Shown: positions 4,173 through 64,000 of the stretch, piece by piece
How positions within the stretch are numbered: the first letter of the stretch is position 1
How the letters are laid out: each line of letters starts with the position of its first letter
Assembly (NCBI GenBank): GCA_964567755.1
Contig: CAZMNW010000020.1
Coordinates: 110,434 to 174,433 of the forward strand
From: an uncultured bacterium
GTDB taxonomy: Bacteria > Krumholzibacteriota > Krumholzibacteriia > G020349025
DNA: 64,000 nucleotides
Direction: 5' to 3'
Program-made: the position numbers and the translations under genes
Notes under the pieces: model-generated
Database searches by the model: none
The model's input: the letters and a program-made list of their open reading frames with translations, nothing else
What the model was told of the DNA's origin: nothing

Positions 4173-4212
4173 GGGTCGAGTCACAGGGTCGCAAGGACCC
4201 TCGGGAGGAGCC

Positions 4213-5067: not shown

Positions 5068-5215
5068 AGCGGCACGGCAACCTCTGGGACAAGGCGTGCG
5101 GCGAGCAAGGACAAAAGAGTCCAGCGATCGCCTGACTGACGACACCTTGCCGTAGTGAATCTAGACGGTTACATACAAAACAGGAAGACTCGATCGCCAA
5201 CCGCGGAGATGCGGC

Positions 5216-8316: not shown

Positions 8317-8317
8317 G

Positions 8318-9219: not shown

Positions 9220-9283
9220 GGCCTCCGGATCCGTCCCGGAACGTCCCCGCTCCAGTTCTGAAGACACGCGAGCGAGTGAAAGG

Positions 9284-16210: not shown

Positions 16211-16275
16211 CGAATGGAGAAGAGCCCGACAGCCGGTGGCAAAGCTGGTACTCTCTTGCAAAGGGAACCATCCTC

Positions 16276-18987: not shown

Positions 18988-19022
18988 AGCCAAGGGCGAT
19001 CTCTGCAAGCGCGATGAACTCA

Positions 19023-19103
19023 GTGCGGCCCCTCACGAGGCCCGAATGCGTTTCCTGGTTGGAGAGGTCCCGGGGGAGATGGTACCCTCCCTCAGGAATC
19101 ATC
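19023..19103 (+). promoter_or_regulatory. conserved 5-prime leader element with hairpin (GGGGGAG...CTCCCTC) preceding paralog 2
   Basis: About 80 bp nearly identical to 24486-24565 upstream of paralog 4; stem-loop ends about 14 nt before the ATG. Confidence 0.4.
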
Positions 19104-24427: not shown

Positions 24428-24485
24428 AGCCCCGTTGTGAAGGCGCCTGCGACGAGGCGAGCCGTAAACGGACCTTGAAACCAAT

Positions 24486-24565
24486 GTGGCCCCTCTCGAG
24501 GCCCGAATGCGTTCCCTGGTTTGGAGAGGTCTCGGGGGAGATGGTAGTCTCCCTCTGGAATCATC
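24486..24565 (+). promoter_or_regulatory. conserved 5-prime leader element with hairpin GGGGGAGA-tggtag-TCTCCCTC (24534-24555) preceding paralog 4
   Basis: Near-identical to 19023-19103; 8-bp stem with one G-U wobble. Confidence 0.4.
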
Positions 24566-27246: not shown

Positions 27247-27607
27247 CCGGACCTCCGTAGATTTACGGATGGCTCTTGCTCCTGTGTGGCTCTCCCTCGC
27301 CGTCGTGCCACCGACTTGGACTTCCGCCGACCCGTATTGCCACTCGATTGCGTTTCCCTTGAGTGAGAGGTCTTGCGTGAAGGTGGTACCCTCTTGCTGG
27401 AATCAGACAAGGTTTGGTACGGGCGGATGGTGCGCCTTCGGCGCACCCATGCTCGCGATGGAACATGCGCCGTTTTGGGCTCGGTCACGCTCTTCGCCTT
27501 TTCCCCTCTCCAGAAGCGGCATGCAGGCTGAGGCTGCCGAGGGCGACGAGTCTTGGTGGGGTGGCTTCGTTTGGCTGGGGCCCAGGGTAAACGCTCACGA
27601 CGCGTGA
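27247..27607 (+). pseudogene. remnant of a fifth beta-propeller paralog (leader plus first ~60 codons only)
   Basis: 27380-27600 is homologous to the leader and N-terminal coding region of paralogs 2 and 4 (ggtaccctcttgctggaatcag...; MQAEAAEGDESWWGGFVWLGP vs AGALEGDEHWRGRFVWPGAG); homology stops at about 27600 with an in-frame TGA. Confidence 0.5.
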
Positions 27608-27645
27608 CGAGTGGATGGTCCGGAAGCTCGCGAAAGGACGAGAGA

Positions 27646-32481: not shown

Positions 32482-32527
32482 TTCTTTTTTCGGCGAGCCC
32501 AGTCCGAAGGCCCGGACGAGGACGAAA

Positions 32528-37340: not shown

Positions 37341-37345
37341 ACGCC

Positions 37346-37867
37346 ATGGGTGCGCATCGAATCGCAAATGCACGCGATCGGGATGAGCAGCGGAGGCTCT
37401 ATCGGGGAATCCATGCCAAAGCGCGGCTGAACCCCGTTCGCTCGAGCGGCGGTGCGATCTTGGTCTTTGCGTTGCTGACCGTGCCGGCAAGCTTACTTGT
37501 CTTGCCGCGGCAAGTGTGGAGCCAAGTGGACTTTTTCCAACCGCCTTCCTTGATCTCGAGTCAGGACCGCAATACGCAGGGCGTCGCTCTGGGGGACGTC
37601 GATCGCGACGGCGACCTCGACCTCGTGCTCGGGAACTACAGGCAAAGCGCGACGCTCCATCTCAACTCCGCAGGGACTCTCGGTTCGATGCCGGCTTGGT
37701 CCTCCGACCTTCCGCATCGGACGACGAGCGTCGTTCTAGGAGACACTGACGGCGACGGCGATCTCGACCTCGTTTGTGAGAACTTCGCGCAGAGAACGAC
37801 GCTGTATTTGAACGAAAACGGCAGCTTCGGCGTCGAACCGGCTTGGTTTGCAGGCCGGTGCGCTTGA
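37346..37867 (+). pseudogene. internal-deletion remnant of an FG-GAP paralog (N-terminal ~165 codons joined to the extreme 3-prime end)
   Basis: N-terminal signal-like sequence and two or three FG-GAP repeats; its last ~30 nt plus the downstream spacer (gcgcttgaaatgaatcggttttttt...cgaaggcc...gaaaATG) match the 3-prime end and junction of paralog A (cgtgctcttgagatgattctttttt...cgaaggcc...gaaaATG). Confidence 0.45.
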
Positions 37868-37922
37868 AATGAATCGGTTTTTTTGTGGTGAAGCCAGTTC
37901 GAAGGCCAGGTGCGAGGCTGAA

Positions 37923-45807: not shown

Positions 45808-45809
45808 GT

Positions 45810-48020
45810 CTACCCTTCCTCGCGCAGCACACGCAGCTTCTGTGCTTCCCAGACCAGCTCGAGGCGCTGGCCTGGCTGAATATCCACCGCGAGCTTGTCG
45901 CTCTTGCCGTCACGGAAAACGACTTCGATCGTATGCCGACCGGCCGAGATCTCTTGTTCCCCAGAGCTCGGCAGCTCGCCCGAGCCCACCTGACGCTCGT
46001 CGATGTAGATACGCGCTGGGCGGTCACCGCGGACGAGCAACATTCCCGCGGGCACCGAGCTCAGGCGCAGACGCAGGTGCTTGGTGGAGTGATCCACGAC
46101 CAAGGTCGTGTCCACCATGACGTACCCGGCCATCTCGGCGCGGAAGAGATGCGAGCCGAATGCGAGCGCCGCGATCACGAGCGGGGCGACACCGCGTTTC
46201 TGGCCGTCGACATGGATCTCTGCCCCGTCAGGGATGGTGACGATGTTCAGGCTCAGTGTGATGGGTTCGAGCCGGACACGGATCGCGATCGTCGTATCGG
46301 GCAGCACGCGTACCGATCGTGCCAGAGTTTGGAAGCCGTCTTGTCGCACCTCGATCGCATGCTCGATGGGGACCCCCAAGCGGGTGATTTCAGCCGTCCC
46401 GGTGCCTATCTCGTTGCCGTCGATCCAGATACGAGCCGTCGCGGGATCGGCCTCGATGCGCAGCGCACCGTGTTGGGGTTGCAAAGCCACCCGAACCGAA
46501 GCGGAATCGGTTGCAGCAACCCGGGTCACGAGCGTCGAATCGTGAAAACCGGGCGCGCTGAGCACGAAACTCACATCGCGGTTCGCAGCAACGGCACGTT
46601 CGAACCGCCCCATGGCGACCGGTTGGCCGTCGAGGAGGATTCTCGCTTCAGGCGGCTCGACGACGAGACGAAGAAAGCCGCTCCTCGAGGCCACGAGGGC
46701 GGGCGGATCGATGCCCGCCGCGTCAGCTCCGTCGTCCGCCGGTTGTGATCGTGGCCAGAGGGCCCAGCTCCCCACCACGAGACCGGCGACGCCTGCGGCC
46801 GCGAGCGCCACCCATCGGGCCCGCCGCGACGGCGGCGAACGGAACGCGAGCCCCTCTTCGTGCATCACCTGCCAGACGGAATGCATGCGCCGGATCCACA
46901 GGCGCCAGAGGTCCATGCGAAACGCGAATTCAGGCGGTCGCACGTCGCTCTTGGTCAGCAGCTCTTGCTTGAAGAGAGTTTCCAGAGCCGTGGAAATCTC
47001 GGGACGCGTGAGACGTAGAGGGTAGTTTCCATTCTTGAGCGTGATGGTGAGATGTTCGGCGCTGGCGTGGCCGCTGGCGGTCTCGATGCTTTCCGCCAAC
47101 AACGCGAGCGTCAGTTTTTGCTCTCGCTGCAGCGTGTCCCACAAGAACGTCATCTGCGGGAATGGATGCTCCACGATCATCTCGACGACCACGTCCAGGA
47201 TGGCGGCGGTGACCGTGTTCGTGCGGTCTTCGTTCAAGGCGTCGACGAGGTACTGGCACACCGCCTGAGTGAAGAAGGGGTGCCCGGCGGTGAGACGCAG
47301 GATCGATTGCACGGTGTCGTCGGCGTACGTCACCCGACCGCTCACGGGTTGCTGGATGAGACGCAGGGAATCCGCCGGTTGCAAGTAGCTGATGCGACGG
47401 TATTCGTGCGCTTTCTCGAGAATGCCCCAGTACTCTGTGCGCCGCTCTTCCAGGTGCTGCGAACCGGTGAAGATGAGGAACATCGGCAAGTTCTCCATGA
47501 GATTGGCGAGGATGAGAAGAACGTCTTTCGTGAGTACGCCGTTGTCGAGTTTGTCTTCGAACAACTCGTACTCGTCGAAGAGCAGCAGGAGCTTGCGATG
47601 CGGACAATGCTCGAGTACGGATTCGATGAAGGAGCGGAACACGGCCGAAGGATTGCCGCGGGCGAAGTCCGGGATCTCCAGACTGCGACCTTCCTCCGCG
47701 AGCTGTTCGACGACTTCCTTGGCGATGAGTGACAGGAACTCCGTTTCGTCCTCCACCGCCATGGCTTGCATGTCGATGAGAACGGGGATGAACTCGCTGC
47801 CGAGTCGTCCCTGCTGGATCTGCAGCAGGATCGAGGTCTTGCCGCTACGGCGCTCGCCGCAGAAGACCATGAGGGAGCCACGGCCGGCCTGCTTGAAACG
47901 TTTCTGCACCAGCTCGAACTCGGACTCGCGGCCGAAGAACATCTCCGGATTGCGCACGGGATTGCCGACGATGAAGGGATTCGGAGAGATGGGTACGAAC
48001 TCGGGAGGCGTCGGGCTCAT
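45810..48020 (-). CDS. P-loop NTPase (same family as the kinase-fused domain) + TM helix + tandem PEGA domains
   Basis: NPFIVGNPVRNPEMFFGRESE...LMVFCGERRSGKTSILLQI (Walker A) ...LLLLFDEYE (Walker B); TM WVALAAAGVAGLVVGSWALW; C-terminal repeated PEGA-like segments (ARILLDGQPV..., ARIWIDGNEIG..., AEIHVDGQKRG..., ARIYIDERQVG...). Starts 3 bp after the upstream kinase-NTPase stop. Confidence 0.8.
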   Translation of the reverse strand: MSPTPPEFVPISPNPFIVGNPVRNPEMFFGRESEFELVQKRFKQAGRGSLMVFCGERRSGKTSILLQIQQGRLGSEFIPVLIDMQAMAVEDETEFLSLIAKEVVEQLAEEGRSLEIPDFARGNPSAVFRSFIESVLEHCPHRKLLLLFDEYELFEDKLDNGVLTKDVLLILANLMENLPMFLIFTGSQHLEERRTEYWGILEKAHEYRRISYLQPADSLRLIQQPVSGRVTYADDTVQSILRLTAGHPFFTQAVCQYLVDALNEDRTNTVTAAILDVVVEMIVEHPFPQMTFLWDTLQREQKLTLALLAESIETASGHASAEHLTITLKNGNYPLRLTRPEISTALETLFKQELLTKSDVRPPEFAFRMDLWRLWIRRMHSVWQVMHEEGLAFRSPPSRRARWVALAAAGVAGLVVGSWALWPRSQPADDGADAAGIDPPALVASRSGFLRLVVEPPEARILLDGQPVAMGRFERAVAANRDVSFVLSAPGFHDSTLVTRVAATDSASVRVALQPQHGALRIEADPATARIWIDGNEIGTGTAEITRLGVPIEHAIEVRQDGFQTLARSVRVLPDTTIAIRVRLEPITLSLNIVTIPDGAEIHVDGQKRGVAPLVIAALAFGSHLFRAEMAGYVMVDTTLVVDHSTKHLRLRLSSVPAGMLLVRGDRPARIYIDERQVGSGELPSSGEQEISAGRHTIEVVFRDGKSDKLAVDIQPGQRLELVWEAQKLRVLREEG

Positions 48021-48364
48021 GATCCTTCTCGCGCCGGGGGAGTCGTCCGCAGAAGGTGCCGTCGTTGCCGTCGCAATGGTCCCAATACCTTATAACGTAG
48101 CACAGGACTGAAAGGGGTCCCATGCCGTGTCCAGCCTTGAGAATTGCAGGATCGCAACTCCCGTTTCGCCGCTGATGCTGAATGAGACGCCATCGATGGG
48201 GGAGCGGACGCCGGACACCAGGCACTTCCATGGCCCCTCCACGCACATTCCTACGTTCTCCATGTAGCCGATCGAGCGGTGGCCATGACCACAGGGGCGC
48301 AAGCCCTAGCGACGGTGTGGGTTGCAGGAAAAACGGTTGTCGACCGATCGTTGGAGGGCGGGCG

Positions 48365-50456: not shown

Positions 50457-53400
50457 TCAGCGTTGGACGACGACTTTCTGCTTCCACGTGCGCGCTCCGA
50501 ACGAGGCACGGAAGAAGTAGACCCCCGCCGGAACGCGGGTGCCGCCATCGTCGTGGATGTCCCATTGCAACCGGTGTCGACCCGCCGGCTGCAGGCCGCG
50601 CACGAGCGTGCGCACACGCTGTCCACGGGCGTTGAAGATGGAAACCTCCACGAGGGCGCTGCTTTGGAGATCGAAGACGACGCTTGTCCACTGCGTCGCC
50701 GGATTGGGATGGATGCGCTCGATGGCGACAACGGCCGCGGGTTCGCCGGCCAGAGGCCCGAGTTTGGTGGCGGCGCCGGAGCGAACTTCGACCGCGACGG
50801 CGGCCCAGTCGCCGGTGCTCTCAAAGCTCCCGTCGAACACGGTTGACGGCGAAGTGGCGCTGCGGTCCGCGACCGCGAGGCCGGCGACGCCGCCGCCCGA
50901 GCCCTGGTGCAGCTCGATGCGCTCCGACCACCCGGGACCTGGTGTGTTGACGCGGCCGCGCATGGCGACACCCCCGAACACGGCGGATCCGCTCTGTGTC
51001 GCGAGCGTGAGCGAATACGCCGGGCCATCGATGCCGTTGCTGCAGCTCCCATCCACACCGTTGGTATTGCCGGAAACGATGCTGCCGATCGGCGTGGTCG
51101 CATGCGCGCCGGAGTAACGCGCCACAGCGATCAACGCGTTTTCTACCGGCGACGCCAAGGTGGCGCTCACGCTGCCGGGACCGGGTGTGCCGCGCGCCAT
51201 CCAGATCTCGATGCCGGTCTGGCCGCGGCCGGCGCACTGGGCGCGGACACGCGTCCACACGAGCCCCAATCCGGTGACGGCGGTCACGTTGCGAATCGGT
51301 TTGCTGGCAATGCTGGCGAGAAAGAGATCGCCTTGGGCGCCGCTCGGCGCTGCCGTGGTCGCCACGCTGGCGATGGCCGAGGACGCGCCGGACTGCACCT
51401 CGACGAAGGTGACACTGCCCGCGGTCGTGCCGCCGACGTTCAAAGTCACCGTCGTCTCGGCGCTCTGCAGGTTGCCGTCGCTGGCACGATACGTGAAGCT
51501 GTCCGCGCCGCTCCATCCGCTCGCGGGCATGTAGGTGAACGATCCATTGGATTGGAGCACCAGCGTGCCGTGATCGACGTCGTTCTGCAGCACGGCGCTC
51601 AAGCCCTCACCATCGGCGTCGCTGTCGTTGCCGAGAACACCGGGAGCCGCGACGGCGAGCGTCGCGCCCGCTTGCACGGAGTAACTTTCCGTGGCCGCTA
51701 CGGGCGCATCCGGCGCCGGCGTCACCGTGATCGTGACGACGGCGGTGTCGGAACCACCGTTGCCGTCGCTGGCGCGGTAGGTGAAGGCGTCGGTGCCGTG
51801 GAAGTTGGCCTGCGGCGTGTAGGTGAACGCACCGCTCGATTGCAGTGACAGCGTGCCGTGTGTGGGCTGCACCGTGACCTGTGCCATGAGCGGATGGTTT
51901 TCGGCATCGGTATCGTTGGCGAGAACGCCGGGTGCCGCGACTGCAAGAGTCACATCCTCGGCGACCGTGTAACCGTCGTCGACGGCCACGGGGGCGGTGT
52001 TGCCGGGCCCGGGTCCCGCCGGTAGCTGCAGCACGAGCTGCGGTTTGTTGGCGCTCTCCTTCGAGCCGTAGCGGCCGCTGTTGGACGACGTGCTCTGCAA
52101 CGCGAAGCTGTAGGTGCCGTCGCCGGTGATCGCAGAAGTGACGTCGAACTCGATCCACGTGCCGCTCGAGACACTGCCAATCGTGGTGAGCGCTGGCGCC
52201 GTGATCGCCGGCGCGTTGTTCGCGTGGATGCCGGTTTCGACCCAGGGTGTCGTCGTGCCCACGTAGTTATTCGAAACTGCATGCATCGTGCCGGCGATGG
52301 GGGTGCCATCGATGACGTAGAGCCGCAGCTTGGCGACATCGAATGTGCTCACCCCAGAGAGCGTGAACTTGAGATAACTCTTGTACGTGCTGCTGCCAGA
52401 CTTCACCCGCATCTCGGTGGCAGCGCCGAAGTTGCTGGTGGATCCGGAGCGGATATACGCATCCGCCACGGGGTTGAAGACCAAGGTCGCCGGTGTCCCG
52501 GCGCTGTCGTTGTCACGGATGGTGCCTTGTCCACGCGCGTCGGCGAGCGTGGCGTTGCTCGCGTTCGAAAGATCGACGAAGAAAGTTTCGTCAGGCTCGT
52601 CGCCGGTGTCCCCGAGCACCGGCACGGAGATCGTGCGCGACGTGGTGGAACCACTGAAGCTCAAAGTTCCCGACGAGGTGGTGTAGTCCGCGCCGGACTG
52701 GGCGGAACCGTTCGTGGTCGCGTACTGGACGCTCACCGTTTGGCCGTCGGGGTTGGCAAGCGTGACGGTGAAGACGGCGGTGACCGAGCCAGTGTCGCCT
52801 TCGTCGATGCTCGCATCCGAGATGGCGAGCGAGGGCGTCGTCGACCCGCCGCAAGGTGGACGGCTCACGGGCTGCGAGTTGTTGTCCCACGGGTTGCGCA
52901 CGAACTGAAACATGTTGGAGGCGTCGAGCGTGGCGGTGACCTGAACGGGGAGCTCCTGGCCGCCCTGCTCCACCTGCACACGCGTGACGTTGGTGGCCGA
53001 AAAGGGTTTGTCCAGCATCCAGCTGTGGCCATCGCCGTGGATGTAGAGGATCGGCTTGGCGAAGCTCTGTGCTGCCGCGTCGAACGGGCTGAAGAAGGTG
53101 GAGCGATTGCCGCCCGGGCCGGCTTGGGCGAAGACGACTGCGCCGCGCACTTGCGACGCCTGCTGTTGCAGGTGCTGGCTCACCCAGGCGGCGTCGTCTT
53201 GCATGATGCCGCTGTCATTCGAGCCGCCGACGAGGTTGATGCCGAGGAACAGCACACCCTTGTAGACGAACGAGAAGTTCTCCTGTCGCCCGCTCTGGCG
53301 CGACGTGGATGGCGAGCAGGTCCAGTTCGATTCCAGCCCCAGTAGGTACTGCACCCAGTATTGCCAGCCCTGGGAAGGACTCGAGCAGTCCGTGGTTTCG

Positions 53401-53808
53401 TTGTCCCCCGGGACGATGTAGGCGGGCACCAGCGAAGATTTCAGGATGTCACGCACGGTCCGGTAACGGTCCTCGGCGCAGCTCTCGCTGCCCGATTTGA
53501 TGTCGCCGACGTGGATGAAGAACTCCGAGGGACTGTACAGGTCGTGCTCGTCGATCTGTTGTTGGAAAGGCGCGACCTCGCTGCTGCCGTAGGGCACGTC
53601 GCCGGTGACCGAGAACGTCACCGGGCTGTTGGCGATTTGGTCGGGAGTGTTGGCATCCGCGGAGCTGCTGCTCCACGTGATTTGTGGCGCGAGCAAGCTC
53701 GCAATGGTCAGGGCGAAGATGAATGGACGAACGCAGGCTGGCTGCGGACAGCGAGAGCGTGCGCTCGAGCCATAAGTCGGAGGCACTCGGTGGTTCATGG
53801 CTGAGCTG
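50457..53808 (-). CDS. secreted multidomain protein: calcineurin-like metallophosphoesterase + Calx-beta + two cadherin-like/bacterial Ig-like domains + FlgD-Ig-like C-terminal domain
   Basis: Start uncertain (ATG 53808 or upstream to 53945); phosphoesterase motifs HVGDIKSG, VPGDNETTDC, IHGDGHSW; Calx-beta segment (SDASIDEGDTGSVTAVFTVTL...YATTNGSAQSGADYT); PVAVDDGYTVAEDVTLAVAAPGVLANDTDAENHPL repeats; C-terminus ERIHPNPATQWTSVVFDLQSSALVEVSIFNARGQRVRTLV...GVYFFRASF. Confidence 0.8.
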
Positions 53809-53945
53809 AAGCTCACCCGGCGATTAACGGGGCGCGCGATCGCGGGTCTATGTCCTGGCTTCGACCCTCCTTCCGGGGCGTTAAGGGTGCAGAAGCAGGT
53901 CCCCTTGCGGGACCTGTAAATGAGAACGAGATCATCGTGCATCAA

Positions 53946-54085
53946 TAGGTTTAGAGTGTTTCTTCAGAACTTACAAGTGAATTGTGATGTAAATAGTTCA
54001 AACTGTGTAGTTTCTATCAATTACTGTTCGTATATTCACTGTTCAAATGTTCACAAAATCGTCAAGGAGAGGCCATGCCACGCAA
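53946..54085. promoter_or_regulatory. AT-rich island in a GC-rich background with TTCAC direct repeats; divergent promoter region
   Basis: About 140 bp of clearly lower GC (aatagttcaaactgtgtagtttctatcaattactgttcgtatattcactgttcaaatgttcacaaaa) between the 5-prime end of the minus-strand phosphoesterase gene and the plus-strand genes; repeats TTCAC-N2-TTCAA-N3-TTCAC at 54055-54074. Confidence 0.35.
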
Positions 54086-54291: not shown

Positions 54292-54981
54292 ATGGCAAAG
54301 CAAGCTCATTTCATCCCGGCATTGTTCGCTTTTCTGCGCGACCTGGAAGCGCACAACGAGCGCGCGTGGTTCGATGCCAACAAAGACCGCTATCTACGCG
54401 ATGTTCGCACGCCGCTGCAAGCGTTCGTCAGCGATTTTGGACCACGTTTGGCGCGAATCAGCTCGCGTTTCGTGGCCGACCCACGTCCCACGGGTGGGTC
54501 GATCTTTCGTATCCACCGCGACACGCGTTTTTCCAAGGACAAGTCTCCCTACAAGACGATGGCGGCGGCACAATTTCGCCACGAGCAGGGCAAGACCGTG
54601 CATGCCCCTGGTTTCTACTTACATCTCGAGCCGGGGCAGGTGTTCGCGGGCGCCGGGCTCTGGCACCCCGAGCGCGACAGCCTCGACAAGGTGCGTCGCG
54701 TGCTCGTCGCCCATCCAGAGCGTTGGAAGCGTATGGTGCGTGCCCCCGCGTTCCGGCGAGTGCTGACCTTGGCTGGGGACTCGTTGGCGCGCGCGCCACG
54801 GGGCTTTCCCGCCGATCACGAGCTCGCTCGTGACCTCAAGCGCACCGACTTCGTCGTCGTAGCGCAATTCTCCGAGCGCGATGCCTGTGCGTTGGGCTTC
54901 ATGAACGAGTTCGCGAAGGTGTGCCGCACGAGCGCGCCCTTCATGGAGCTACTGACGCGGGCCCTCGGCCTACGCTGGTAA
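54292..54981 (+). CDS. DUF2461 / TIGR02453-family conserved hypothetical protein
   Basis: MAKQAHFIPALFAFLRDLEAHNERAWFDANKDRYLRDVRTPLQAF...FRIHRDTRFSKDKSPYKT matches the conserved N-terminal motifs of this family as I recall them. Confidence 0.65.
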   Translation: MAKQAHFIPALFAFLRDLEAHNERAWFDANKDRYLRDVRTPLQAFVSDFGPRLARISSRFVADPRPTGGSIFRIHRDTRFSKDKSPYKTMAAAQFRHEQGKTVHAPGFYLHLEPGQVFAGAGLWHPERDSLDKVRRVLVAHPERWKRMVRAPAFRRVLTLAGDSLARAPRGFPADHELARDLKRTDFVVVAQFSERDACALGFMNEFAKVCRTSAPFMELLTRALGLRW

Positions 54982-55158
54982 GCGCTCTCATCCGACTGCG
55001 AGCACTCCTCACTGTATCCATTTTCAGCGGCCCCGGCGCGACTGGTTCCTTTGGAAACACAAACGGCCGGACCGCTGGAGCCGATCCGGAGCACGGCTCT
55101 AACTAATTATTGAATAGATACTTACACTATCCAAAGGAAAGGGGAAACTTCCCCAACC

Positions 55159-55174
55159 CGGCACGTTCCTGGCA
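55159..55174 (+). promoter_or_regulatory. sigma-54 (-24/-12)-like promoter motif CGGCACGTTCCTGGCA, preceded by palindrome GGGGAAACTTCCCC (55141-55154) and an AT-rich tract
   Basis: GG and GC at canonical spacing, about 30 bp upstream of the ImcH-like cytochrome start codon; GAGGAAGGGAG RBS follows. Confidence 0.35.
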
Positions 55175-55204
55175 GATCAGCCTGATCGAGGAAGGGAGAC
55201 CACA

Positions 55205-56623
55205 ATGCTGCGAGGTCTGGTCAACTTCATCGGGCGCGCCAGCGGAGATGCCCTCGGTCTGATCGCAATCACCCTCTTGGGTGTGACTGGGGTGACCTTC
55301 CTGGGGCTCATGGCTGTTCAGCTCACGAGCCGGGAGCTGTCGCCGTACCTCGGAATCGTCATGTATCTCGTGCTCCCGGCCGCATTCGCCACCGGGCTCG
55401 GGCTCCTCGGGCTGTCGCGCTGGCGCGTGCGGCGAGCGCAGAGGAGCGGCCGGCCGGTCCCGTGGCAGCTCGACCTGACGAACCCGGCGCATCGCGAGCG
55501 TCTCGGTGTCTTCGCCTTCGTCGCGCTGGCCAGCATCATCATCTTGGCGCTCAGCGCCTACCACGGCGTGCATTACATGGACTCGACCAGTTTTTGCGGC
55601 GAAGTGTGTCATGTGGTGATGGAACCCGAGTTCGCGGCGTATCAGAACTCGCCGCATGCACGCGTCAACTGCACGGACTGCCACATTGGGCCGGGCGCCA
55701 GCTGGTTCGTGAAGTCGAAGCTTTCCGGCTCGCGGCAACTCCTGGCGGTGGCGCTCAAGACCTACCCGCGTCCCGTGCCGGCTCCGATCGAGAATCTACG
55801 TCCGGCACGCGAAACGTGCGAGCAGTGCCACTGGCCCGCGAAGTTCCACGGCGATCGCATGAAGGTCCACCTGCGTTTCCAAGAAGACGAAGCCAATACG
55901 GCGCTCAAGACGGTTCTCCTGCTCAAGGTCGGTGGCGGCAGTCTCGAGTCGGGGTTTGCGGAAGGCATCCACTGGCACATGAACCTCGCCAATCGCATCG
56001 ACTACCGCGCCGACGAGAACCGCGAGAAGATCTACTGGATCAGGGTCGAGGACCGGGATGGCCACGTGCGCGAGTACTGGAAGGAGGATGGCCTCGAACG
56101 GCAGGCGATTCTGGCGCTGCCGGCGCGCCGGATGGATTGCATGGATTGCCACAACCGTCCCACGCACGAGTTCGACCGGCCGAGCGAAGCGCTGGACGAG
56201 GCGCTGCAGACCCGACAGATCGCTCCCGATCTGCCGTTCCTCAAGCGCGAGGGGCTCCGATTGTTGCAGTCACCGCACGCGACCAAGGCGGAGGGCGTGC
56301 AGAGCTTTGCGCCAGGGCTCGTCGACTATTACGCGCGCGAGTATCCAGAGCTCGCAGCGGCACGACGAATCGACATCGAGGCTGCCGCCGCCGTGCTGCA
56401 GTCGATCTACGCGCGCAACATCTTCCCGGCGATGAACGTGACCTGGGGTACGTACCCGAATCACATCGGACACCAGGACGACGGCGGCTGTTTCCGCTGC
56501 CATGACGAAGGACATACGACCGATGACGGGCAGACGATCAGCCAAGATTGCTCGACCTGTCACGTGCTCCTGGCTCACGAGGAGGCGGATCCAGAGGTGC
56601 TGCGGGTCCTGCGTGGCGAATAG
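55205..56623 (+). CDS. inner-membrane multiheme c-type cytochrome, NapC/NirT-superfamily, ImcH-like
   Basis: Three N-terminal TM helices, then CGEVCH...CTDCHIG (NapC/NirT-like spacing) plus CEQCH, CMDCH, CFRCH, CSTCH (six CxxCH). Confidence 0.8.
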   Translation: MLRGLVNFIGRASGDALGLIAITLLGVTGVTFLGLMAVQLTSRELSPYLGIVMYLVLPAAFATGLGLLGLSRWRVRRAQRSGRPVPWQLDLTNPAHRERLGVFAFVALASIIILALSAYHGVHYMDSTSFCGEVCHVVMEPEFAAYQNSPHARVNCTDCHIGPGASWFVKSKLSGSRQLLAVALKTYPRPVPAPIENLRPARETCEQCHWPAKFHGDRMKVHLRFQEDEANTALKTVLLLKVGGGSLESGFAEGIHWHMNLANRIDYRADENREKIYWIRVEDRDGHVREYWKEDGLERQAILALPARRMDCMDCHNRPTHEFDRPSEALDEALQTRQIAPDLPFLKREGLRLLQSPHATKAEGVQSFAPGLVDYYAREYPELAAARRIDIEAAAAVLQSIYARNIFPAMNVTWGTYPNHIGHQDDGGCFRCHDEGHTTDDGQTISQDCSTCHVLLAHEEADPEVLRVLRGE

Positions 56624-56700
56624 GGTCTGAACACTCGTGCTGTGCGAGCCTGTCGCATGACCGAGTTGTCAGCCGGAATCGCGAGGAAGGAGATCAGCGA

Positions 56701-58731
56701 ATGCGAGCCTGCCTCGTCACCCTGATCTCGATGTTGTGCATGGGCGTGCTGACCGCGAGCGGTTCACTGCGGGCGCAGGAGGCGCCTGTGACCAACGCTT
56801 GTCTCGAGTGTCATGGTACGGACGGCGTGCGCGATGCGACGCAGCCGCTCGACGGGATGAGCGTATTCCGGGGAGACTGGGAAGCCAGCGTCCATGCTGG
56901 GTTGGAATGCACGGATTGCCACACCAGTCTGCAAGCGCTGCCGCATGATGTGCCGTTGCCGCGCGCCGAGTGCTCTGCCTGCCATCCGGATGAAACACGA
57001 GCTTACGCGCAAAGCACGCACGGGCGGCTCTGGGCCGCGGGTGACAGCCTGGCGCCTTCCTGTGCCCAGTGTCACGACCCGCACGCGGTGCGCCCCTCCG
57101 ACGATCCTACGAGCGTCTTGCATCGCACCCATTTGGCCGCTGTTTGCATCGTCTGCCATGGAGATGCCAACGGGGTGGGTGCGCGTCCGACCGCCGTACC
57201 CCGACCGGCCCAAACGTACGCTCGCGGCGCGCATGCGCAAGCGATGGCTGCGGGCAACCAAAAGGCAGCGACATGCAAGGATTGTCACGATAGCCATGCG
57301 GTTCTCGGCGCCAGCGATCCGGCATCGCCGATCTACTACAGCAATGTTCCGCACACCTGCGGGCGTTGCCACGTGCAGGAATTCGAGGCTTACCACACCA
57401 GCGTGCACAGCGCCGGTGCCGAACAGGGAGCGACGGGATCACCCGTGTGCAACACCTGCCATGGCGAGCATGCGGTGGTGGATTTGGGCGAGGCCGGGCA
57501 GTCCGCCGTCGTCGCCAGCGAGACCTGCGAGAGCTGCCACCAAAGCCCGGCCTTGGCACGGCGCTACGATTTGCCGGCGGGAGCGGTGGCTTCGTACGAG
57601 GACAGCTACCATGGACGCGCGGCGCGCGGGGGGCTGGCGCGGGCTGCGGGTTGCACCAGCTGCCATGGAGTGCACCGAATCCTGGCGGCCGCGGATTCCG
57701 CCTCGTCCATTCATCCGGCAAACCTGACGGTCACGTGCCGCCGCTGCCACGAACAGGCGAGCGCGGAATTCGCCACTTCCTACGCCCATGCGCCGCGCGC
57801 CGCGTCGGCGGCCGACCGCGGCACGGCGACCGTACGCAACATCTATGGATGGCTCATCGGGATCGTCATTGGCGGAATGTTGCTGCACAATCTGGTGCTC
57901 TTCGCACACGACATGCGCCGGCGCTGGGCGCATCATCGCGCGCACGCGACGCACGTGCGGCTCGTAGGCAGCGAGCTGCGGCAACACGCGGTGCTCCTCG
58001 TCACCTTTTCGGTCTTGGTGTTCACCGGTTTCGCCTTGAAGTACGACCACACCTTCTGGGCCCGCTGGCTCGAGGCGATCGGCATGACCGAGGAGGTGCG
58101 GCGAATCGTGCACCGAGTCGCCGCGGTCGGCATGATCTTGGTGTCGATCGCGCACATGGTCTACCTGTTCGGCCGGCGCGGGCGCGAACAGCTCGGTCAC
58201 ATGACCCCGCGGATGCTCGACTTGCACGAGCTGGGGCAAAACCTGTCGTACCACTTGGGGCGGCGGTCGATGCCGCCTGCATTCTCCCGCTTCCGTTACA
58301 TCGAGAAGGCAGAGTACTGGGCACTGCTGTGGGGCACGATGGTCATGGTGGCGACGGGTCTCGTGCTCTGGTTTCCCGACCAGCTGCGGGGACCGAGTTG
58401 GCTGGTGCGCGTGGCCGAGGCGGTGCATCTCTACGAAGCCTGGCTCGCTTTCCTCGCCATCGTCGTCTGGCACTTCTTCTTCGTCATGCTGCGGCCGGGA
58501 ACCTTCCCGCTCTCCTTCACCGTCTTCACGGGCCGCATGGAACCGGAGGAGCTCGAGCACGAGCACCCCCAAGAGTTCCACGCGCTGGCACCGCGTCGCC
58601 TGCACCGGCCACCACCCGGGACACCGGAGCCGCCCGCATCGGCAGGCTCGGGCGCACCGATCGAGCCGGCCGGTGGCGACGAGACACCGCCGCTTCCGGG
58701 GGCGGACCACGAGCCGGGACCGCGATCGTGA
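56701..58731 (+). CDS. CbcL-like fusion: periplasmic multiheme cytochrome c (11 CxxCH) + C-terminal diheme cytochrome b-type membrane domain
   Basis: Signal MRACLVTLISMLCMGVLTASGSLRA; 11 CxxCH motifs; C-terminal 4-5 TM helices with conserved His (LHNLVLFAHDMRRRWAHH..., VAEAVHLYEAWLAFLAIVVWHFFF) as in HydC/FdnI-type b cytochromes. Confidence 0.85.
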   Translation: MRACLVTLISMLCMGVLTASGSLRAQEAPVTNACLECHGTDGVRDATQPLDGMSVFRGDWEASVHAGLECTDCHTSLQALPHDVPLPRAECSACHPDETRAYAQSTHGRLWAAGDSLAPSCAQCHDPHAVRPSDDPTSVLHRTHLAAVCIVCHGDANGVGARPTAVPRPAQTYARGAHAQAMAAGNQKAATCKDCHDSHAVLGASDPASPIYYSNVPHTCGRCHVQEFEAYHTSVHSAGAEQGATGSPVCNTCHGEHAVVDLGEAGQSAVVASETCESCHQSPALARRYDLPAGAVASYEDSYHGRAARGGLARAAGCTSCHGVHRILAAADSASSIHPANLTVTCRRCHEQASAEFATSYAHAPRAASAADRGTATVRNIYGWLIGIVIGGMLLHNLVLFAHDMRRRWAHHRAHATHVRLVGSELRQHAVLLVTFSVLVFTGFALKYDHTFWARWLEAIGMTEEVRRIVHRVAAVGMILVSIAHMVYLFGRRGREQLGHMTPRMLDLHELGQNLSYHLGRRSMPPAFSRFRYIEKAEYWALLWGTMVMVATGLVLWFPDQLRGPSWLVRVAEAVHLYEAWLAFLAIVVWHFFFVMLRPGTFPLSFTVFTGRMEPEELEHEHPQEFHALAPRRLHRPPPGTPEPPASAGSGAPIEPAGGDETPPLPGADHEPGPRS

Positions 58732-61517
58732 ACGCACACCGGTCGCGCATCGTCGGGCTCTGGATCGCGATGCAGATCCTCGCCTTGGCGCCGGCAGTCG
58801 GCGCAGCCCCCGTTTCGGTTTGCCTCGAATGCCATTCCGACGCCGATCTCGCCACGGAGCGTCAGGGGCAGACGGTGTCGCTGTTCGTCGACCCCGCGAT
58901 CCTGCAGCAGAGCGTGCACCGGGGGCTCGAGTGCGATGATTGCCACCTGGACGTGGATGTGGAGAACCTGCCGCATCCCGAGCGTTTGCAGCCGGTGCAC
59001 TGCGCGACTTGCCACGACGATGCGCAGGTGGATTTCGACGCCAGCATTCACGGACAAGCGCTGAACCGCAATGCACCCTTCGCGCCTTCGTGCCGCGAGT
59101 GCCACGGCACCCACGACATTCGCTCGGCCGCAGATCCGACGGCCCCGACCTACAAGATGAACGTGCCCTTCCTCTGCGGGCGCTGCCACCGGGAAGGCGC
59201 GCCCGTGTCGCGTTATTACGACATCTCGGAGCACAACATCCTGGAGAATTACAGCGAGAGCGTCCATGGGGAGGCTTTGTTCAAGAAGGGGCTCATCGTC
59301 ACGGCCACCTGCACGGACTGCCACGAGGCGCATCGGATTCTGCCACACACCAATCCGCTTGCATCCATCGCGCCGCGCAACATCGCCAAAGCCTGCATGA
59401 AGTGCCACACTCGCATCGAGCAGGTTCACGTGCAGGTGATTCGCGGCGAGTTGTGGGAGAAGCAGCCCGGCGCCATCCCGGCCTGCTCCGACTGCCACGT
59501 GCCGCACAAGGTACGCAAGGAATCGATGGAGCTGCTCCTGTCGGATCGGGATTGCATGAAGTGCCATGCCGCTTCCGACGTGCACAAGGTCGTGGACGGC
59601 GAGAGGGTCCCGCTCACCGTGAGCGTGGAGGACATTGCCACCTCGGTGCATCAGAACATCGCCTGCGTCAAGTGCCACTCCGACGTGGACCCGCGCCGCC
59701 GGCGGCCGTGCGAGACGGCGGGCGCGGCCAATTGTTCGAATTGCCACGTGCGCATGCAAGACGAATACCGTGAGAGCGGCCACGGCAAGGCCTTCGCCGC
59801 CGGCGTCAAGCAAGCACCGACGTGCACGACCTGTCACGGCACTCATCGCGTGCTCGGACACCAGGACGAGGCCGCTCCGGTCTATCGCGCCTCGGTGCCA
59901 GAGCTGTGCGGCAAGTGTCATCGTGCCAATGGCGCCGCAGGGGAAGTGGCGCAACTGTCGCAGACGACGGCGCTGGCGGACTATTCGTCCAGCGTGCATG
60001 GGCGTGCACTGACGGAGAAGGGGCTGCTGCCGAGCGCCGTCTGCATCGACTGCCACGGATCGCATCTGATTCTCGGTCACGCGGACGAGCGCTCGAGCGT
60101 CTTCAGCCGCAATGTGCCGGGAACGTGCGCCAGCTGCCATCGCGGCATCTACAAGCAGTACGCCAAGAGCATTCACTTCGGCGCGCGCAATGAAAAAGGC
60201 GAGAAGTTGCCGAACTGCACCGACTGCCACTCGGCGCACACCATCCAGCAGGTCGAGAAGGACCAGTTCATGCGCGAGGTGACCGATCAATGCGGTTCCT
60301 GCCACCGGGATCTCGCCGCGACCTATCTGGAAACGATGCATGGCAAGGCCTACCGGCTCGGCTACACGGGGTCGGCGAAGTGTTCCGACTGCCATGGAGC
60401 GCACGAGATCCTGGGCACGGACAATCCACTCTCGACCGTCGGCATGCGCCACATCGTCGACACTTGTAAACAGTGTCATGCGGACGCGACGATGCGGTTC
60501 ACCGGTTATCTCACCCATGCGACGCATCACGATCCGGTCAAGTATCCGGCGCTCTACTACACGTACTGGGCCATGACCTTGTTGCTGGTCGGAGTGTTCG
60601 GGTTTTTCGGTCTGCACACTCTGATGTGGCTGCCGCGGTCGTTCCGCGCCCTGCGCGAGCGGCGCGCCCATGCCGCCGCCGGCGAGCCACGGCACTACAT
60701 CCAGCGCTTCACCCGCATCCAGCGGCTGACGCACCTGTTCGTCATCCTGAGTTTTCTGACGCTCGCGCTCACCGGGATGATGCTCAAGTTCTCGTCCATG
60801 CCGTGGGCCGGCTTCATTGCCGGGGCGCTCGGCGGCGTGCGTGGAGCCGGCATCATTCATCGCATCGCGGCCTGCGTCACCTTCGGCTACTTCATCCTGC
60901 ACTTGGGAACCCTGCTGGCGATGAAACGCCGGCGGCGCATGAGCGTGAAGCAGCTCGTGTTCGGCGCGAACTCGCTGATGTTCAATCGGCGGGACCTGAG
61001 CGAGTTCTTGGCGACCTTGCGCTGGTTCTTCCACCGCGGGCCACGCCCGGCCTACGGCCGTTGGACGTACTGGGAGAAGTTCGACTATCTGGCGGTGTTC
61101 TGGGGCGTGGCGATCATCGGCGCCTCGGGTCTGCTGCTGTGGTTCCCCGAGTTCTTCACCCGCGTGCTCCCGGGCGCCTTGATCAATGTCGCGACGATCA
61201 TCCACAGCGACGAGGCGTTGCTCGCCGTCGGCTTCATCTTCACCATCCACTTCTTCAACACGCACCTGCGGCCCGAGGTCTTCCCGATGGACACGGTGAT
61301 TTTCACCGGTCTCGTGCCACTGGCAGAATATCGCAAGGACCGCCCGGCGGAATACGAGGCGATGAAAGCAAGTGGCGAGCTGGCCAAGCGCGTGCGCCGG
61401 CAGACGATCTCGAAGCGGGCCGAAATCATGGTCCGCATCTTCGGTTACACGTTTCTCGGCATCGGCATCGTCCTCATCGGCCTCATCCTCTATTCGGTGC
61501 TGCGCGGCTACAAGTAG
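58728..61517 (+). CDS. CbcL-like fusion paralog: about 19-heme cytochrome c domain + C-terminal cytochrome b-type membrane domain
   Basis: Start uncertain (GTG 58728 overlapping the upstream stop, or ATG 58770); about 19 CxxCH motifs; C-terminal TM helices with His ligands (THHDPVKY, IIHRIAACVTFGYFILHLG, IIHSDEALLAVGFIFTIHFFNTHL). Confidence 0.85.
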   Translation: MNAHRSRIVGLWIAMQILALAPAVGAAPVSVCLECHSDADLATERQGQTVSLFVDPAILQQSVHRGLECDDCHLDVDVENLPHPERLQPVHCATCHDDAQVDFDASIHGQALNRNAPFAPSCRECHGTHDIRSAADPTAPTYKMNVPFLCGRCHREGAPVSRYYDISEHNILENYSESVHGEALFKKGLIVTATCTDCHEAHRILPHTNPLASIAPRNIAKACMKCHTRIEQVHVQVIRGELWEKQPGAIPACSDCHVPHKVRKESMELLLSDRDCMKCHAASDVHKVVDGERVPLTVSVEDIATSVHQNIACVKCHSDVDPRRRRPCETAGAANCSNCHVRMQDEYRESGHGKAFAAGVKQAPTCTTCHGTHRVLGHQDEAAPVYRASVPELCGKCHRANGAAGEVAQLSQTTALADYSSSVHGRALTEKGLLPSAVCIDCHGSHLILGHADERSSVFSRNVPGTCASCHRGIYKQYAKSIHFGARNEKGEKLPNCTDCHSAHTIQQVEKDQFMREVTDQCGSCHRDLAATYLETMHGKAYRLGYTGSAKCSDCHGAHEILGTDNPLSTVGMRHIVDTCKQCHADATMRFTGYLTHATHHDPVKYPALYYTYWAMTLLLVGVFGFFGLHTLMWLPRSFRALRERRAHAAAGEPRHYIQRFTRIQRLTHLFVILSFLTLALTGMMLKFSSMPWAGFIAGALGGVRGAGIIHRIAACVTFGYFILHLGTLLAMKRRRRMSVKQLVFGANSLMFNRRDLSEFLATLRWFFHRGPRPAYGRWTYWEKFDYLAVFWGVAIIGASGLLLWFPEFFTRVLPGALINVATIIHSDEALLAVGFIFTIHFFNTHLRPEVFPMDTVIFTGLVPLAEYRKDRPAEYEAMKASGELAKRVRRQTISKRAEIMVRIFGYTFLGIGIVLIGLILYSVLRGYK

Positions 61518-61602
61518 TCGGGACGCGATCCTGGCGATTCGTGGTGCTCGCGCGCGTCGTTGGCACCGGGAAGGCGTCCAAGAGTTCGGGAACCGCCGCG
61601 GA

Positions 61603-63384
61603 TCAGGCAGGCAGCTTGCGGATGCGAAGAGCGAGGCCGACGAGGACGACGAGCACGAACACGAGCGACAAGGCCAAGCCGCGCCGGCGGAGTTGCAGCT
61701 CGCGCACGCCCTTCTGTGCCGCCGCGAGTGCGGCGTTGGCGTGCGCGAGTCCTTCCTCGTGCTTGCTCGCGAGATTGGCGGCTGCATCGGTGCCGCCGAA
61801 CGCGTGCACGAGCACCTGCATCTCGATCTGAGAGTCCACGGCGCGATCGAGGGCGAGGAGCGCTTCACGCACCTCGACGCCGCCGCGCCGCGCGCGCAGC
61901 AACATGCGCTCGGCTCGGGCCGTCGCGCCGGTCACCTCCTGAACGCGCTGCAGGTGGTTGCGCGCTGTGTCGAGGCCGATGGCGCCGGCGGCGAGCTTCG
62001 GTTCGGCGGCATGGCAATCGCTGCAGCGCTTCACGCGGTCGGTGACGGTGCTGCCCGTGGCCGGATCGACGAAGCTGTAGTGGATCTTGCCAATGCGGAA
62101 CTTCTCGAACAGCCGGGCAAATTCGGGCCGCAGGGGGACCGACCCTGCTTCGTCGGACATCTGCGTGTGCGTGGGCAGCTCCAACGCACGGTCCACGAGC
62201 CAGTCGAAGAGATGCTCGTCGTCGAGGCCGCGGGCTTCCGGACGCTCCAGGAGCGCCGCCAAGGTCTCGGCATAGCGGGCGCGCGTGGCCTCGGGTTCCG
62301 GGACGATGTCGGACAACAAGGACTCGTGGCAGAAAGCGCAGGGTGTCGCGGGGAGGGGGGCGAGCAACGCCACGGTTGGTCGCACGATGGAGTGATTGCC
62401 ATGGCACGTCGCGCACTCCGAGAACGAACGGAGGTTCCGTTGCGCCGCCGGCTCGCTCGTGTCGTGGCAGGCGGCGCAGCCTTCGCGACCGGCGTCCTGC
62501 AGCAGGGCATTGTGCTCGACCAGCCCCGCATGTTTGGCGCTGGCCCGAAACAATCCCGCCTCGCGACCATGGCATTGGCCGCAGACGAATGAAACATCGT
62601 CGAGCCCGGGCGGTGCGGCGCCATGATTCCCATGACAGTCATTGCACGTCGGCGCCGACAAGTCCCCCTTCTGGTGCATGGCATGGGCGTGCACGCTCTG
62701 CTGCCAGCGAGCGTACTGATCGACCGGGAGTGGCGTGCCATCGGGCTTCGAGGACCCGCGCATGTGGTTGGCGTTGCCGTGGCAGCCATTGCAGGTCTCG
62801 GCGACGCGCTTGGGGTAGACGCGGGAATCCGGCTCGCTCGGCCGGCGGATGCCGTGCACACCATGACAATCGACGCAGGTCGCCACGCGCAAGTCTCCCT
62901 CGCGCAGCCGCCGTCCATGGTGGCTGGTGGCGTACTCTTGCTCCTGGTCCACGCGCGCATCGGGTTTGAAGCGCCTCATGAAGACGGGATCGGAGTGGCA
63001 ACGGCCGCAGAAGGCCGGCACGCCGGCCCGGCCCGGTGCCCCGCGGTACGGGTTGGCCGCGTACTGCGACTGCATTGATGCTTCCATGTCGGTCGCGAGC
63101 GCCGCATCGGGGTTGCCGCCGTGACAGTCGTGGCAAGAAAGTCCAACCTGCGCGTGGACATCGGCGGCGAAGGCCTCGACGATGTCGCGCACGGTGTTGG
63201 CGTCGAAGAGATCGGTGTTGCTGTGACACGCCACGCAAGAGGTGGCCGGGAGCCGGGTGGCTGGCGTCGCTGCGGGGTTCGCCGCAGCGGGCGGATTTTC
63301 CTGTGCAGACGCAAGCGAGACCCAGCACGCGCCGAGCGCGGCGAGGGTGACTCGCGACGTTCGTTTTCGGGTGGGGAATCGCAT
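61603..63384 (-). CDS. membrane-anchored multiheme c-type cytochrome (11 CxxCH, C-terminal TM helix), CbcA-like
   Basis: Signal VTLAALGACWVSLASAQE; CVACH, CHDCH, CGRCH, CVDCH, CNGCH, CNDCH, CGQCH, CAACH, CATCH, CAFCH, CSDCH; C-terminal LALSLVFVLVVLVGLAL. Confidence 0.85.
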   Translation of the reverse strand: MRFPTRKRTSRVTLAALGACWVSLASAQENPPAAANPAATPATRLPATSCVACHSNTDLFDANTVRDIVEAFAADVHAQVGLSCHDCHGGNPDAALATDMEASMQSQYAANPYRGAPGRAGVPAFCGRCHSDPVFMRRFKPDARVDQEQEYATSHHGRRLREGDLRVATCVDCHGVHGIRRPSEPDSRVYPKRVAETCNGCHGNANHMRGSSKPDGTPLPVDQYARWQQSVHAHAMHQKGDLSAPTCNDCHGNHGAAPPGLDDVSFVCGQCHGREAGLFRASAKHAGLVEHNALLQDAGREGCAACHDTSEPAAQRNLRSFSECATCHGNHSIVRPTVALLAPLPATPCAFCHESLLSDIVPEPEATRARYAETLAALLERPEARGLDDEHLFDWLVDRALELPTHTQMSDEAGSVPLRPEFARLFEKFRIGKIHYSFVDPATGSTVTDRVKRCSDCHAAEPKLAAGAIGLDTARNHLQRVQEVTGATARAERMLLRARRGGVEVREALLALDRAVDSQIEMQVLVHAFGGTDAAANLASKHEEGLAHANAALAAAQKGVRELQLRRRGLALSLVFVLVVLVGLALRIRKLPA

Positions 63385-63394
63385 GCACTCCCTT

Positions 63395-64000
63395 TCAATC
63401 GCGGTGCATGCCGCGACCGAGAACGACGACGACGAGACCGGTGCCCAACACGACGGCCACCGGAACCCACGAACGGTAGCCCCAGGTGGTCATGCCGACG
63501 ACATAGGCCAGACCCAGCACGCCGATGGCGGTGAACAGCGGGCTTCGCCCGTCGCGGACGATGCGCCGATCGAGGAAAGGCACGAGCAGCATCCCGACCC
63601 CAGCGACGCCGAACAGCAGGATCGGAATCGCCTCGTATTCGATCCCTAAGATCTCGCCACCGGGCACCAGCTTCAGGGTCTGGAACATGAACATGAAGTA
63701 CCACTCGGGCTTGATGTTCTTGTAGGCCGGTGCGAATGGATCCGCCTTCTCGCCGAGCTCCCACGGGAACAACGCGGCAAGACTGGCTAGCGCCGCCAGC
63801 GCCAAGATCCAGCCGAAGAGGTCGCGCAGGAGAAAATCGGGCATGAACTTCATGTGGCGACTGGGCCGCGATGCGTATCGCGGCGGCACACTCATCCCGT
63901 GCACCTGCACCAGGACGACGTGCAGTCCGAGGAGGAGCAAGGTCAGCGCCGGCAGGATCGCCACGTGCCAGCCATAGAAACGCGACAGAGTGCCACCGCT
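63395..64000 (-). CDS. cytochrome b (bc-complex type) C-terminal / subunit-IV-like region; 5-prime end beyond window
   Basis: KPEWYFMFMFQTLKLVPGGEILGIEYEAIPILLFGVAGVGMLLVPFLDRR matches the PEWY quinol-site motif region of cytochrome b/PetD; the frame stays open to the window edge; ends 10 bp upstream of the 11-heme cytochrome gene. Confidence 0.6.
   Translation of the reverse strand, partial: SGGTLSRFYGWHVAILPALTLLLLGLHVVLVQVHGMSVPPRYASRPSRHMKFMPDFLLRDLFGWILALAALASLAALFPWELGEKADPFAPAYKNIKPEWYFMFMFQTLKLVPGGEILGIEYEAIPILLFGVAGVGMLLVPFLDRRIVRDGRSPLFTAIGVLGLAYVVGMTTWGYRSWVPVAVVLGTGLVVVVLGRGMHRD

Follow-up and report, generated by a model that had tools for sequence, protein, structure and literature searches.

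Side-by-side ImcH-type, CbcL-type and bc-type cytochrome genes in a genome fragment of an uncultured Krumholzibacteriota bacterium

The analyzed stretch, hereafter the window, comprises 64,000 nucleotides of contig CAZMNW010000020.1 (assembly GCA_964567755.1, positions 110,434 to 174,433) from an uncultured bacterium of the Krumholzibacteriota. Five cytochrome genes, denoted A to E, occupy its right-hand end and encode four modules that are predicted to join the quinone pool to periplasmic heme chains. A is assigned to the ImcH family of inner-membrane cytochromes, B and C to the CbcL/MtrH/MtoC-type fusions, and D and E to a predicted Rieske/cytochrome b complex whose c subunit carries 11 hemes. 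By analogy with Geobacter, these modules are most likely parallel menaquinol-to-periplasm electron exits that are produced together and differ in working potential and energy yield, a reading to which we assign a probability of roughly 55%. The five genes were picked out by codon-position GC and motif counts. Because the window has a GC content of 64%, raw lists of open reading frames (ORFs) are full of spurious frames; the GC at third codon positions (GC3) of the cytochrome genes is 0.73–0.84. Genes A to D hold 46 CxxCH motifs, while the remaining 55 kb hold two (any frame, ORFs of at least 60 aa), so the clustering of heme motifs is far beyond chance.

Genes A (55205–56623; 472 aa; five CxxCH and one CxxxCH), B (56701–58731; 676 aa; 11 CxxCH) and C (58734–61517; 927 aa; 19 CxxCH) lie on the plus strand. 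Given the gaps of 77 bp between A and B and 2 bp between B and C, they are almost certainly co-transcribed. Genes D (61603–63384; 593 aa; 11 CxxCH) and E (63395 to beyond 64000; C-terminal 201 aa visible; no c-heme motif) lie on the minus strand, E being truncated by the end of the window. With 10 bp between them, they form a predicted single operon that converges on A-B-C, 85 bp separating C and D. Simple scans for promoters and terminators in this region gave signal at background level only. The original prediction, made from the letters of the sequence and a list of its ORFs, had named these five reading frames with their heme counts, and both CxxCH counting and GC3 find them in place. While the genes exist, the long frame proposed for C (57294–61517) overlaps B, and C probably starts later. 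Its start is most likely the GTG at 58734, 2 bp past the stop of B; all 19 motifs lie downstream of this codon, and an exact-match database look-up found no gene with exactly this product. For B, the ATG at 56701 was taken as the presumed start because a signal peptide follows.

The product of gene A has hydrophobic segments at residues 20–38, 49–67 and 100–118, which correspond to three N-terminal transmembrane helices; its AlphaFold2 (AF2) model (confidence score pLDDT 82) has long helices at residues 16–42, 49–81 and 94–125. The first heme motif, C131-GEV-C135-H136, is of the CX3CH type and sits beside the membrane domain, whereas the other five, at residues 156, 205, 312, 429 and 449, are CX2CH motifs. 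Residues 99–185, around helix 3 and the first hemes, match PF03264 NapC/NirT (E = 1.2e-8), and residues 107–211 match NrfH (PDB 2j7a_C; E = 9.5e-6). The protein nonetheless stays below the curated equivalog cut-offs for NrfH, NapC and TorC (55 bits against 134 for NrfH; 27 against 455 for TorC). All 118 sequences in an alignment of A and its relatives have exactly one CX3CH and five CX2CH motifs, and C131, C135, H136, K172 and Q178 are invariant among them. The ImcH family has been defined by three helices, an adjoining atypical CX3CH, 5–9 CX2CH motifs and NapC/NirT homology (PMC6295460; PMC4251993). By these published hallmarks, together with the invariant Lys and Gln, A is classed as a member of the family, in keeping with the ImcH-like label that it had been given before.

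The likeness of A to ImcH of Geobacter sulfurreducens (GSU3259), judged by residue position and published family features with no direct alignment, covers the three helices, a CX3CH motif beside the third of them, the NapC/NirT/NrfH-like quinol-site region and a length of ~470–520 aa. It extends to the surroundings of heme 1. In Geobacter ImcH, this heme is ligated by H137 and, distally, by Q179, and a conserved Lys, K173, is close by. In A, K172 and Q178 lie 36 and 42 residues past H136, the same offsets as those of K173 and Q179 past H137. Unlike Geobacter ImcH, which has seven hemes (six CX2CH), A has six in total (five CX2CH), within the family range of 5–9. Moreover, imcH of Geobacter is monocistronic, whereas A, like ImcH-like genes in relatives, lies directly upstream of a CbcL-type gene. 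The family is large, with at least 7,993 database clusters at E < 1e-5 and named members from Gemmatimonadota, Acidobacteriota, Zixibacteria and Eisenbacteria; it was known from Acidobacteria and Gemmatimonadetes (Zhong & Shi 2018, PMC6295460). A tblastn search of plasmids returned only a single short NapC/NirT match for A and no match for B.

Proteins B and C both start with a signal peptide. B carries 11 CX2CH motifs (an eight-heme module and a three-heme unit), five hydrophobic helices and a Pro-rich tail; its residues 429–597 match PF01292 Ni_hydr_CYTB (E = 2.7e-9), and there is a sub-threshold match to formate dehydrogenase gamma. C carries 19 CX2CH motifs, arranged as two tandem eight-heme modules and a three-heme unit, and a six-helix cytochrome b domain of the FdnI fold. 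C was aligned with 119 of its 120 listed homologues (61–81% identical; from Krumholzibacteria, Latescibacterota and Eisenbacteria). In this alignment of 120 sequences, H628, H667, H709/H723 and H824/H839/H844 are invariant, and counterparts are visible in B. The membrane domains of both proteins thus have one His in each of helices 1–3 and a pair in helix 5 (H824 and H839, 15 residues apart, in C), which is also the pattern of CbcL. Both are therefore assigned to the CbcL/MtrH/MtoC architecture, i.e., a periplasmic multiheme cytochrome c fused to a C-terminal FdnI/HydC-type diheme cytochrome b of five to six helices with presumed quinol/quinone reactivity, and their earlier description as CbcL-like fusions stands. 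The likeness rests on the published family description. Geobacter CbcL (GSU0274; AAR33608.1) has nine hemes, compared to 11 in B and 19 in C. Other departures from CbcL are the tandem duplication of the eight-heme module in C, the occurrence of B and C as two tandem paralogues, and the five helices and Pro-rich tail of B.

Hemes 1–8 and 9–16 of C have identical spacing, and the two modules that contain them share 35% identity over 233 aa (E = 1.8e-52). The single eight-heme module of B is 30–31% identical to each of them, and a related three-heme unit ends both proteins, so that C has the layout of B with an eight-heme module added. Only 32% identity is shared by the membrane domains of the two proteins, which makes their genes old paralogues. 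A recent duplication is ruled out by this value and by the closer relatives that each of them has elsewhere. The heme number of C had been put at about 19, as counted here, and had been contrasted with the nine of Geobacter CbcL. This number is not exceptional, as exactly 19 motifs occur in 117 of the 120 aligned sequences and the published family range is 3–23 heme motifs, with lengths up to 1034 aa (2018 survey). In the Thermoanaerobaculia, relatives of C even have 21 heme motifs.

In protein D, a signal peptide precedes 11 CX2CH motifs and a helical C-terminal region, and the C-terminus carries a single transmembrane anchor (residues 570–588). An identical protein is encoded with the same neighbours on two short Logan contigs (~2.5 kb), and the sequencing runs that contain it are SRR9952630 and SRR9952632. 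The visible part of E matches PF13631 (E = 5.6e-14) and PF00032 (E = 6.3e-8), as well as mitochondrial and bacterial cytochrome b chains and b6f subunit IV in the PDB, and carries the Qo motif PEWY within KPEWYF. Its full-length relatives of 381–398 aa comprise fused b6 and subunit IV with 7–8 helices, and none of them contains the CxGG motif of heme ci. In the relatives checked (loci L092, L018 and L012), the gene upstream of the E-like cytochrome b encodes a Rieske protein with a PetC-type anchor; the Rieske box in the relatives reads CTHLDC...CNCH. The metagenomic contig L092 encodes counterparts of C (71% identity), D (66%) and E (74%) and has the layout of the window: a B-like and a C-like gene, followed by a convergent D-like gene and genes for a cytochrome b of 381 aa and a Rieske protein of 206 aa. 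Judging by this layout, the missing N-terminal half of E and, very probably, a Rieske gene follow directly beyond position 64000.

The original prediction had labeled the cytochrome b and 11-heme pair CbcBA-like. Resemblances to CbcBA of Geobacter (GSU0593-0594) do exist: in both cases a b-type cytochrome gene adjoins a multiheme cytochrome c with a single C-terminal transmembrane helix, and both are presumed to oxidize quinol. However, CbcB has four helices and is a type-I diheme cytochrome b akin to the membrane anchors of hydrogenase and thiosulfate reductase, annotated as ‘thiosulfate reductase’-like, whereas E belongs to the bc1/b6f family and is presumably partnered by a Rieske protein. 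Compared by description, CbcA has seven hemes and D 11. Nor is there a BccR-like sigma-54 regulator beside D and E, either in the window or in L092. A CbcBA identity is therefore ruled out by the Pfam matches, the PEWY motif, the bc1/b6f chains in the PDB and the Rieske neighbour in relatives, and D and E are reassigned to a Rieske/cytochrome b complex. With bc1/b6f complexes, the pair shares the fused b6 and subunit IV with PEWY, the Rieske gene upstream in relatives and a c-type cytochrome gene directly downstream. D is presumed to be the c subunit of the complex, in the place of cytochrome c1 or f. Unlike these monoheme proteins, it has 593 aa, 11 hemes and a C-terminal anchor; the lack of the CxGG motif in the full-length relatives of E is a further point of difference in this comparison. 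The nearest Geobacter analogue of the complex may be Cbc3 (CbcVWX).

The recurrence of this neighbourhood was evaluated around cytochrome b. A scan of one genome per species yielded 564 relatives of E, of which the best 80 loci were examined. A D-like cytochrome is encoded directly downstream of cytochrome b in 75 of these 80 loci, while an ImcH-like gene lies within 10 kb in 16 and a cytochrome c/b fusion in 17. The latter two occur near cytochrome b in several orders and orientations and in several phyla. For a single-copy gene in a 5-Mb genome, we estimate a random co-location of ~0.4%; as ~20% is seen, the linkage is real. In the closest relatives (L003 and L004), an ImcH-like gene lies directly upstream of a B-like gene, and in L086 (Krumholzibacteria) and L088 (Latescibacterota) directly upstream of a C-like gene. 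In seven loci, from Thermoanaerobaculia and other Acidobacteriota, the D-like gene is followed on its own strand, after a few hundred bp to ~4.5 kb, by a full-length C-like gene. The three architectures had been said to be normally at separate loci. This applies to Geobacter but not to the Acidobacteriota, Krumholzibacteria, Latescibacterota and Eisenbacteria, in which co-location recurs. For C, D and E, the top matches come from Krumholzibacteria, Latescibacterota, Eisenbacteria and Thermoanaerobaculia, at 65–76% identity, and include no close reference genome.

Some of these loci contain further genes near the cytochromes. In L086 (12923–13519) and L088 (13008–13583), a convergent gene for a ~195-aa protein matching Cytochrome_C554 follows the pair of ImcH-like and 19-heme genes, in the place of the undecaheme/cytochrome b operon. 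In L088, moreover, a 4Fe-4S/NrfD pair immediately precedes the ImcH-like gene. A conserved membrane protein of ~590–710 aa with 9–13 helices and no convincing Pfam match is encoded between the cytochrome modules of L019 (12302–14224), L029 (12629–14488), L032 (4289–6067) and L036 (15683–17803), and is absent from the window.

Several relatives encode outer-membrane conduits close to these modules. In L019 (18505–20604), genes for an MtrB/PioB porin (E = 2.9e-37) and for a ten-heme cytochrome that resembles MtrA in size and number of hemes adjoin the ImcH-like/CbcL-like pair; in the 2018 survey, by contrast, mtrAB was not found beside imcH (PMC6295460). The same arrangement near the Rieske/cytochrome b–undecaheme operon is seen in L029, L033, L043, L057 and L078, which like L019 are from Thermoanaerobaculia. 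In at least 10 of the 80 loci, cytochrome b has a related MtrB/PioB-like porin gene within 10 kb. L004 has a different set (5630–9619): its DUF2461 and ImcH-like genes flank a trio that encodes an 11-heme cytochrome, a porin-like protein of 528 aa and a probable lipoprotein with nine hemes. The DUF2461 gene of the window is 66% identical to that of L004 and abuts A, with only 226 bp at this site (54978–55205), so a trio of this kind is absent there. The trio, a candidate conduit, thus appears to be gained or lost at the DUF2461/ImcH site between close relatives (L004 is 71% identical).

The gene structures, family features, internal duplication and neighbourhood conservation are observed directly, whereas the outward electron flow, the grading of the exits by potential and an extracellular acceptor are inferred. 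The quinone-pool exit or entry role that had been suggested at the outset is the natural reading of the module types, and three quinone-site chemistries would be involved. As a NapC/NirT-related quinol dehydrogenase, A would oxidize menaquinol at the periplasmic face, beside its unusual first heme, and hand the electrons on along six hemes. It would release both protons and electrons into the periplasm and be electroneutral, as has been shown for Geobacter ImcH. In B and C, the two b hemes of the FdnI-like domain would carry electrons across the membrane to an 11- or 19-heme wire resembling MtrA. D and E, together with the Rieske protein expected beyond the window, would form a Rieske/cytochrome b complex in which a membrane-anchored 11-heme cytochrome replaces c1 or f and which would operate a Q cycle. 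Complexes of the bc type work by a Q cycle and need the acceptor of highest potential among the exits. All of these exits would feed periplasmic or outer-membrane multiheme acceptors. In Geobacter, imcH and cbcL are expressed constitutively and chosen by potential rather than by regulation, which fits an operon that co-produces both types. A closed quinol-to-quinone loop between ImcH and CbcL was considered as well, but is thermodynamically impossible, since protons would be moved although no net redox reaction takes place.

A number of observations weigh against parallel exits. Only ~20% of the related cytochrome b loci have ImcH-like or fusion genes nearby, from which it follows that the modules are separable. 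A Rieske/cytochrome b complex is an ordinary component of aerobic or denitrifying chains and does not require an extracellular acceptor. The CbcL/MtoC family also occurs in Fe(II) oxidizers, and the direction of flow cannot be read from sequence. Finally, the 64-kb window contains no outer-membrane conduit, no terminal reductase and no soluble periplasmic cytochrome, and the site that is syntenic to the porin-cytochrome trio of L004 is empty. An extracellular acceptor is hence putative. Two other explanations, ordinary periplasmic respiration and inward flow, jointly take up a large share of our belief, though short of half.

The first of them is that the Rieske/cytochrome b–undecaheme complex serves as complex III for oxidases or denitrification enzymes, while A, B and C feed soluble nitrite, N-oxide, sulfur or selenium reductases. 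We consider this rather unlikely. It agrees with the missing conduit in the window and with the quinol-site region that A has in common with NrfH, as well as with the 479-aa cytochrome encoded nearby in L004, which matches PF02335 (NrfA family), and with L088, where nothing conduit-like accompanies the 4Fe-4S/NrfD pair. Moreover, the undecaheme partner is kept in nearly all of the examined loci while ImcH, CbcL and porin genes are mostly not nearby, as would be expected for a housekeeping complex. On the other hand, the scores of A fall far under the NrfH, NapC and TorC cut-offs, and neither NrfA, NapA nor another catalytic partner is encoded beside A-B-C. Wires of 11–19 hemes also exceed the length needed for a soluble partner, and MtrAB-like conduits do occur beside such genes in several relatives.

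Alternatively, Fe(II), a cathode or partner cells may act as electron donors, the electrons entering the quinone pool via CbcL/MtoC-type proteins that act as quinone reductases and the Rieske/cytochrome b complex then working downhill to an oxidant or reversed to provide a low-potential reductant. Homologues of the CbcL/MtrH/MtoC family are found in Fe(III) reducers as well as in Fe(II) oxidizers, the nearby porins of the relatives are of the MtrB/PioB type that is used in both directions, and the FdnI fold is quinone-reducing in its type enzyme. Indeed, in Fdn-N of E. coli, the FdnI-fold module reduces quinone. However, ImcH homologues have so far been linked only to quinol oxidation in reducers, carbon-fixation and oxidase genes are absent from the window, and no sequence feature favours the inward direction. 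We regard inward flow as less probable still than ordinary respiration. A chance juxtaposition of the A-B-C and D-E operons in a cytochrome-rich genome, with no functional meaning, is very unlikely: although the operons are convergent and not co-transcribed, L091 (the closest C relative) has B and C with no ImcH-like gene directly upstream, and ~80% of the related cytochrome b loci have neither an ImcH-like nor a fusion gene within 10 kb, the co-occurrence far exceeds the random expectation, survives changes in gene order and orientation across several phyla, and includes the seven loci in which a C-like gene follows the D-like gene in the same orientation.

Beyond parallel exits, a bolder proposal can be made, which we regard as unlikely. 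Whereas in Geobacter the ImcH-type and the CbcL-type protein are alternatives encoded apart, the ImcH-type and the long CbcL-type protein may form an obligately co-produced unit tied to the Rieske/cytochrome b–undecaheme complex in Acidobacteriota and in the Krumholzibacteria/Latescibacterota/Eisenbacteria, in which a wire of 19–21 hemes, anchored in the inner membrane, could be of sufficient length to span most of the periplasm and dock directly on MtrAB-type conduits. If such a periplasm-bridging wire exists, soluble periplasmic carriers would be unneeded and several quinone sites would share one continuous heme chain.

The remainder of the window encodes other proteins. A trio on the plus strand (1423–5064) comprises a GcvH-like gene (PF01597), a gene for an NrfD/PsrC-like membrane protein (PF03916; 2634–4169) and a second GcvH-like gene. 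This arrangement is non-standard, in that a lipoyl-carrier-like protein flanks a quinone-interacting membrane subunit on each side. It is followed on the same strand by genes for a HAMP histidine kinase and a sigma-54-dependent response regulator (5165–8313), 47 kb from the cytochrome genes. A matching pair is found in L003 (125–3237), ~7 kb upstream of the ImcH-like gene of this 77%-identical relative. By analogy with BccR and cbcBA in Geobacter, the kinase/regulator pair may regulate the cytochrome cluster. A Ser/Thr kinase with TPR repeats is encoded on the minus strand (9287–11602), where a Ser/Thr kinase fused to an nSTAND2 NTPase, beside an AAA/PEGA-domain protein, is found as well (43867–48089). 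About eleven large secreted proteins are encoded at 11793–42896 and 50460–53963, nearly all with an FlgD_ig-type C-terminal domain and one also with Por_Secre_tail. They include four tandem paralogues with DUF5122/Rax2 beta-propellers (16054–27233), four or five very large FG-GAP proteins, the longest of 1695 aa (27532–42896), and a cadherin/Big_9/CBM96 adhesin. The many FlgD_ig-type domains fit the group of Krumholzibacteria, Latescibacterota, Eisenbacteria and Thermoanaerobaculia. A peptidase gene is also present within the 55 kb upstream of the cluster.

All four modules belong to described families, the range of heme numbers and the phylum distribution have already been published, and the layout recurs in many related genomes. 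The gain is therefore neighbourhood detail and a corrected annotation rather than a new principle. What is added here is a corrected label for the pair once called CbcBA-like, the anatomy of the 19-heme subfamily with its duplicated module, and the recurrent adjacency of ImcH- and CbcL-type genes, tied to the Rieske/cytochrome b–undecaheme operon and to MtrAB-like genes. The cluster provides natural test material to relate the length of the heme wire (11 versus 19) and the type of quinone site to working potential and energy yield. If parallel exits are the correct reading, little-known phyla of soil and sediment hold a compact island of three kinds of quinone-coupled cytochromes, and this island would be a handy marker set to predict which uncultured bacteria exchange electrons with minerals or partner cells.

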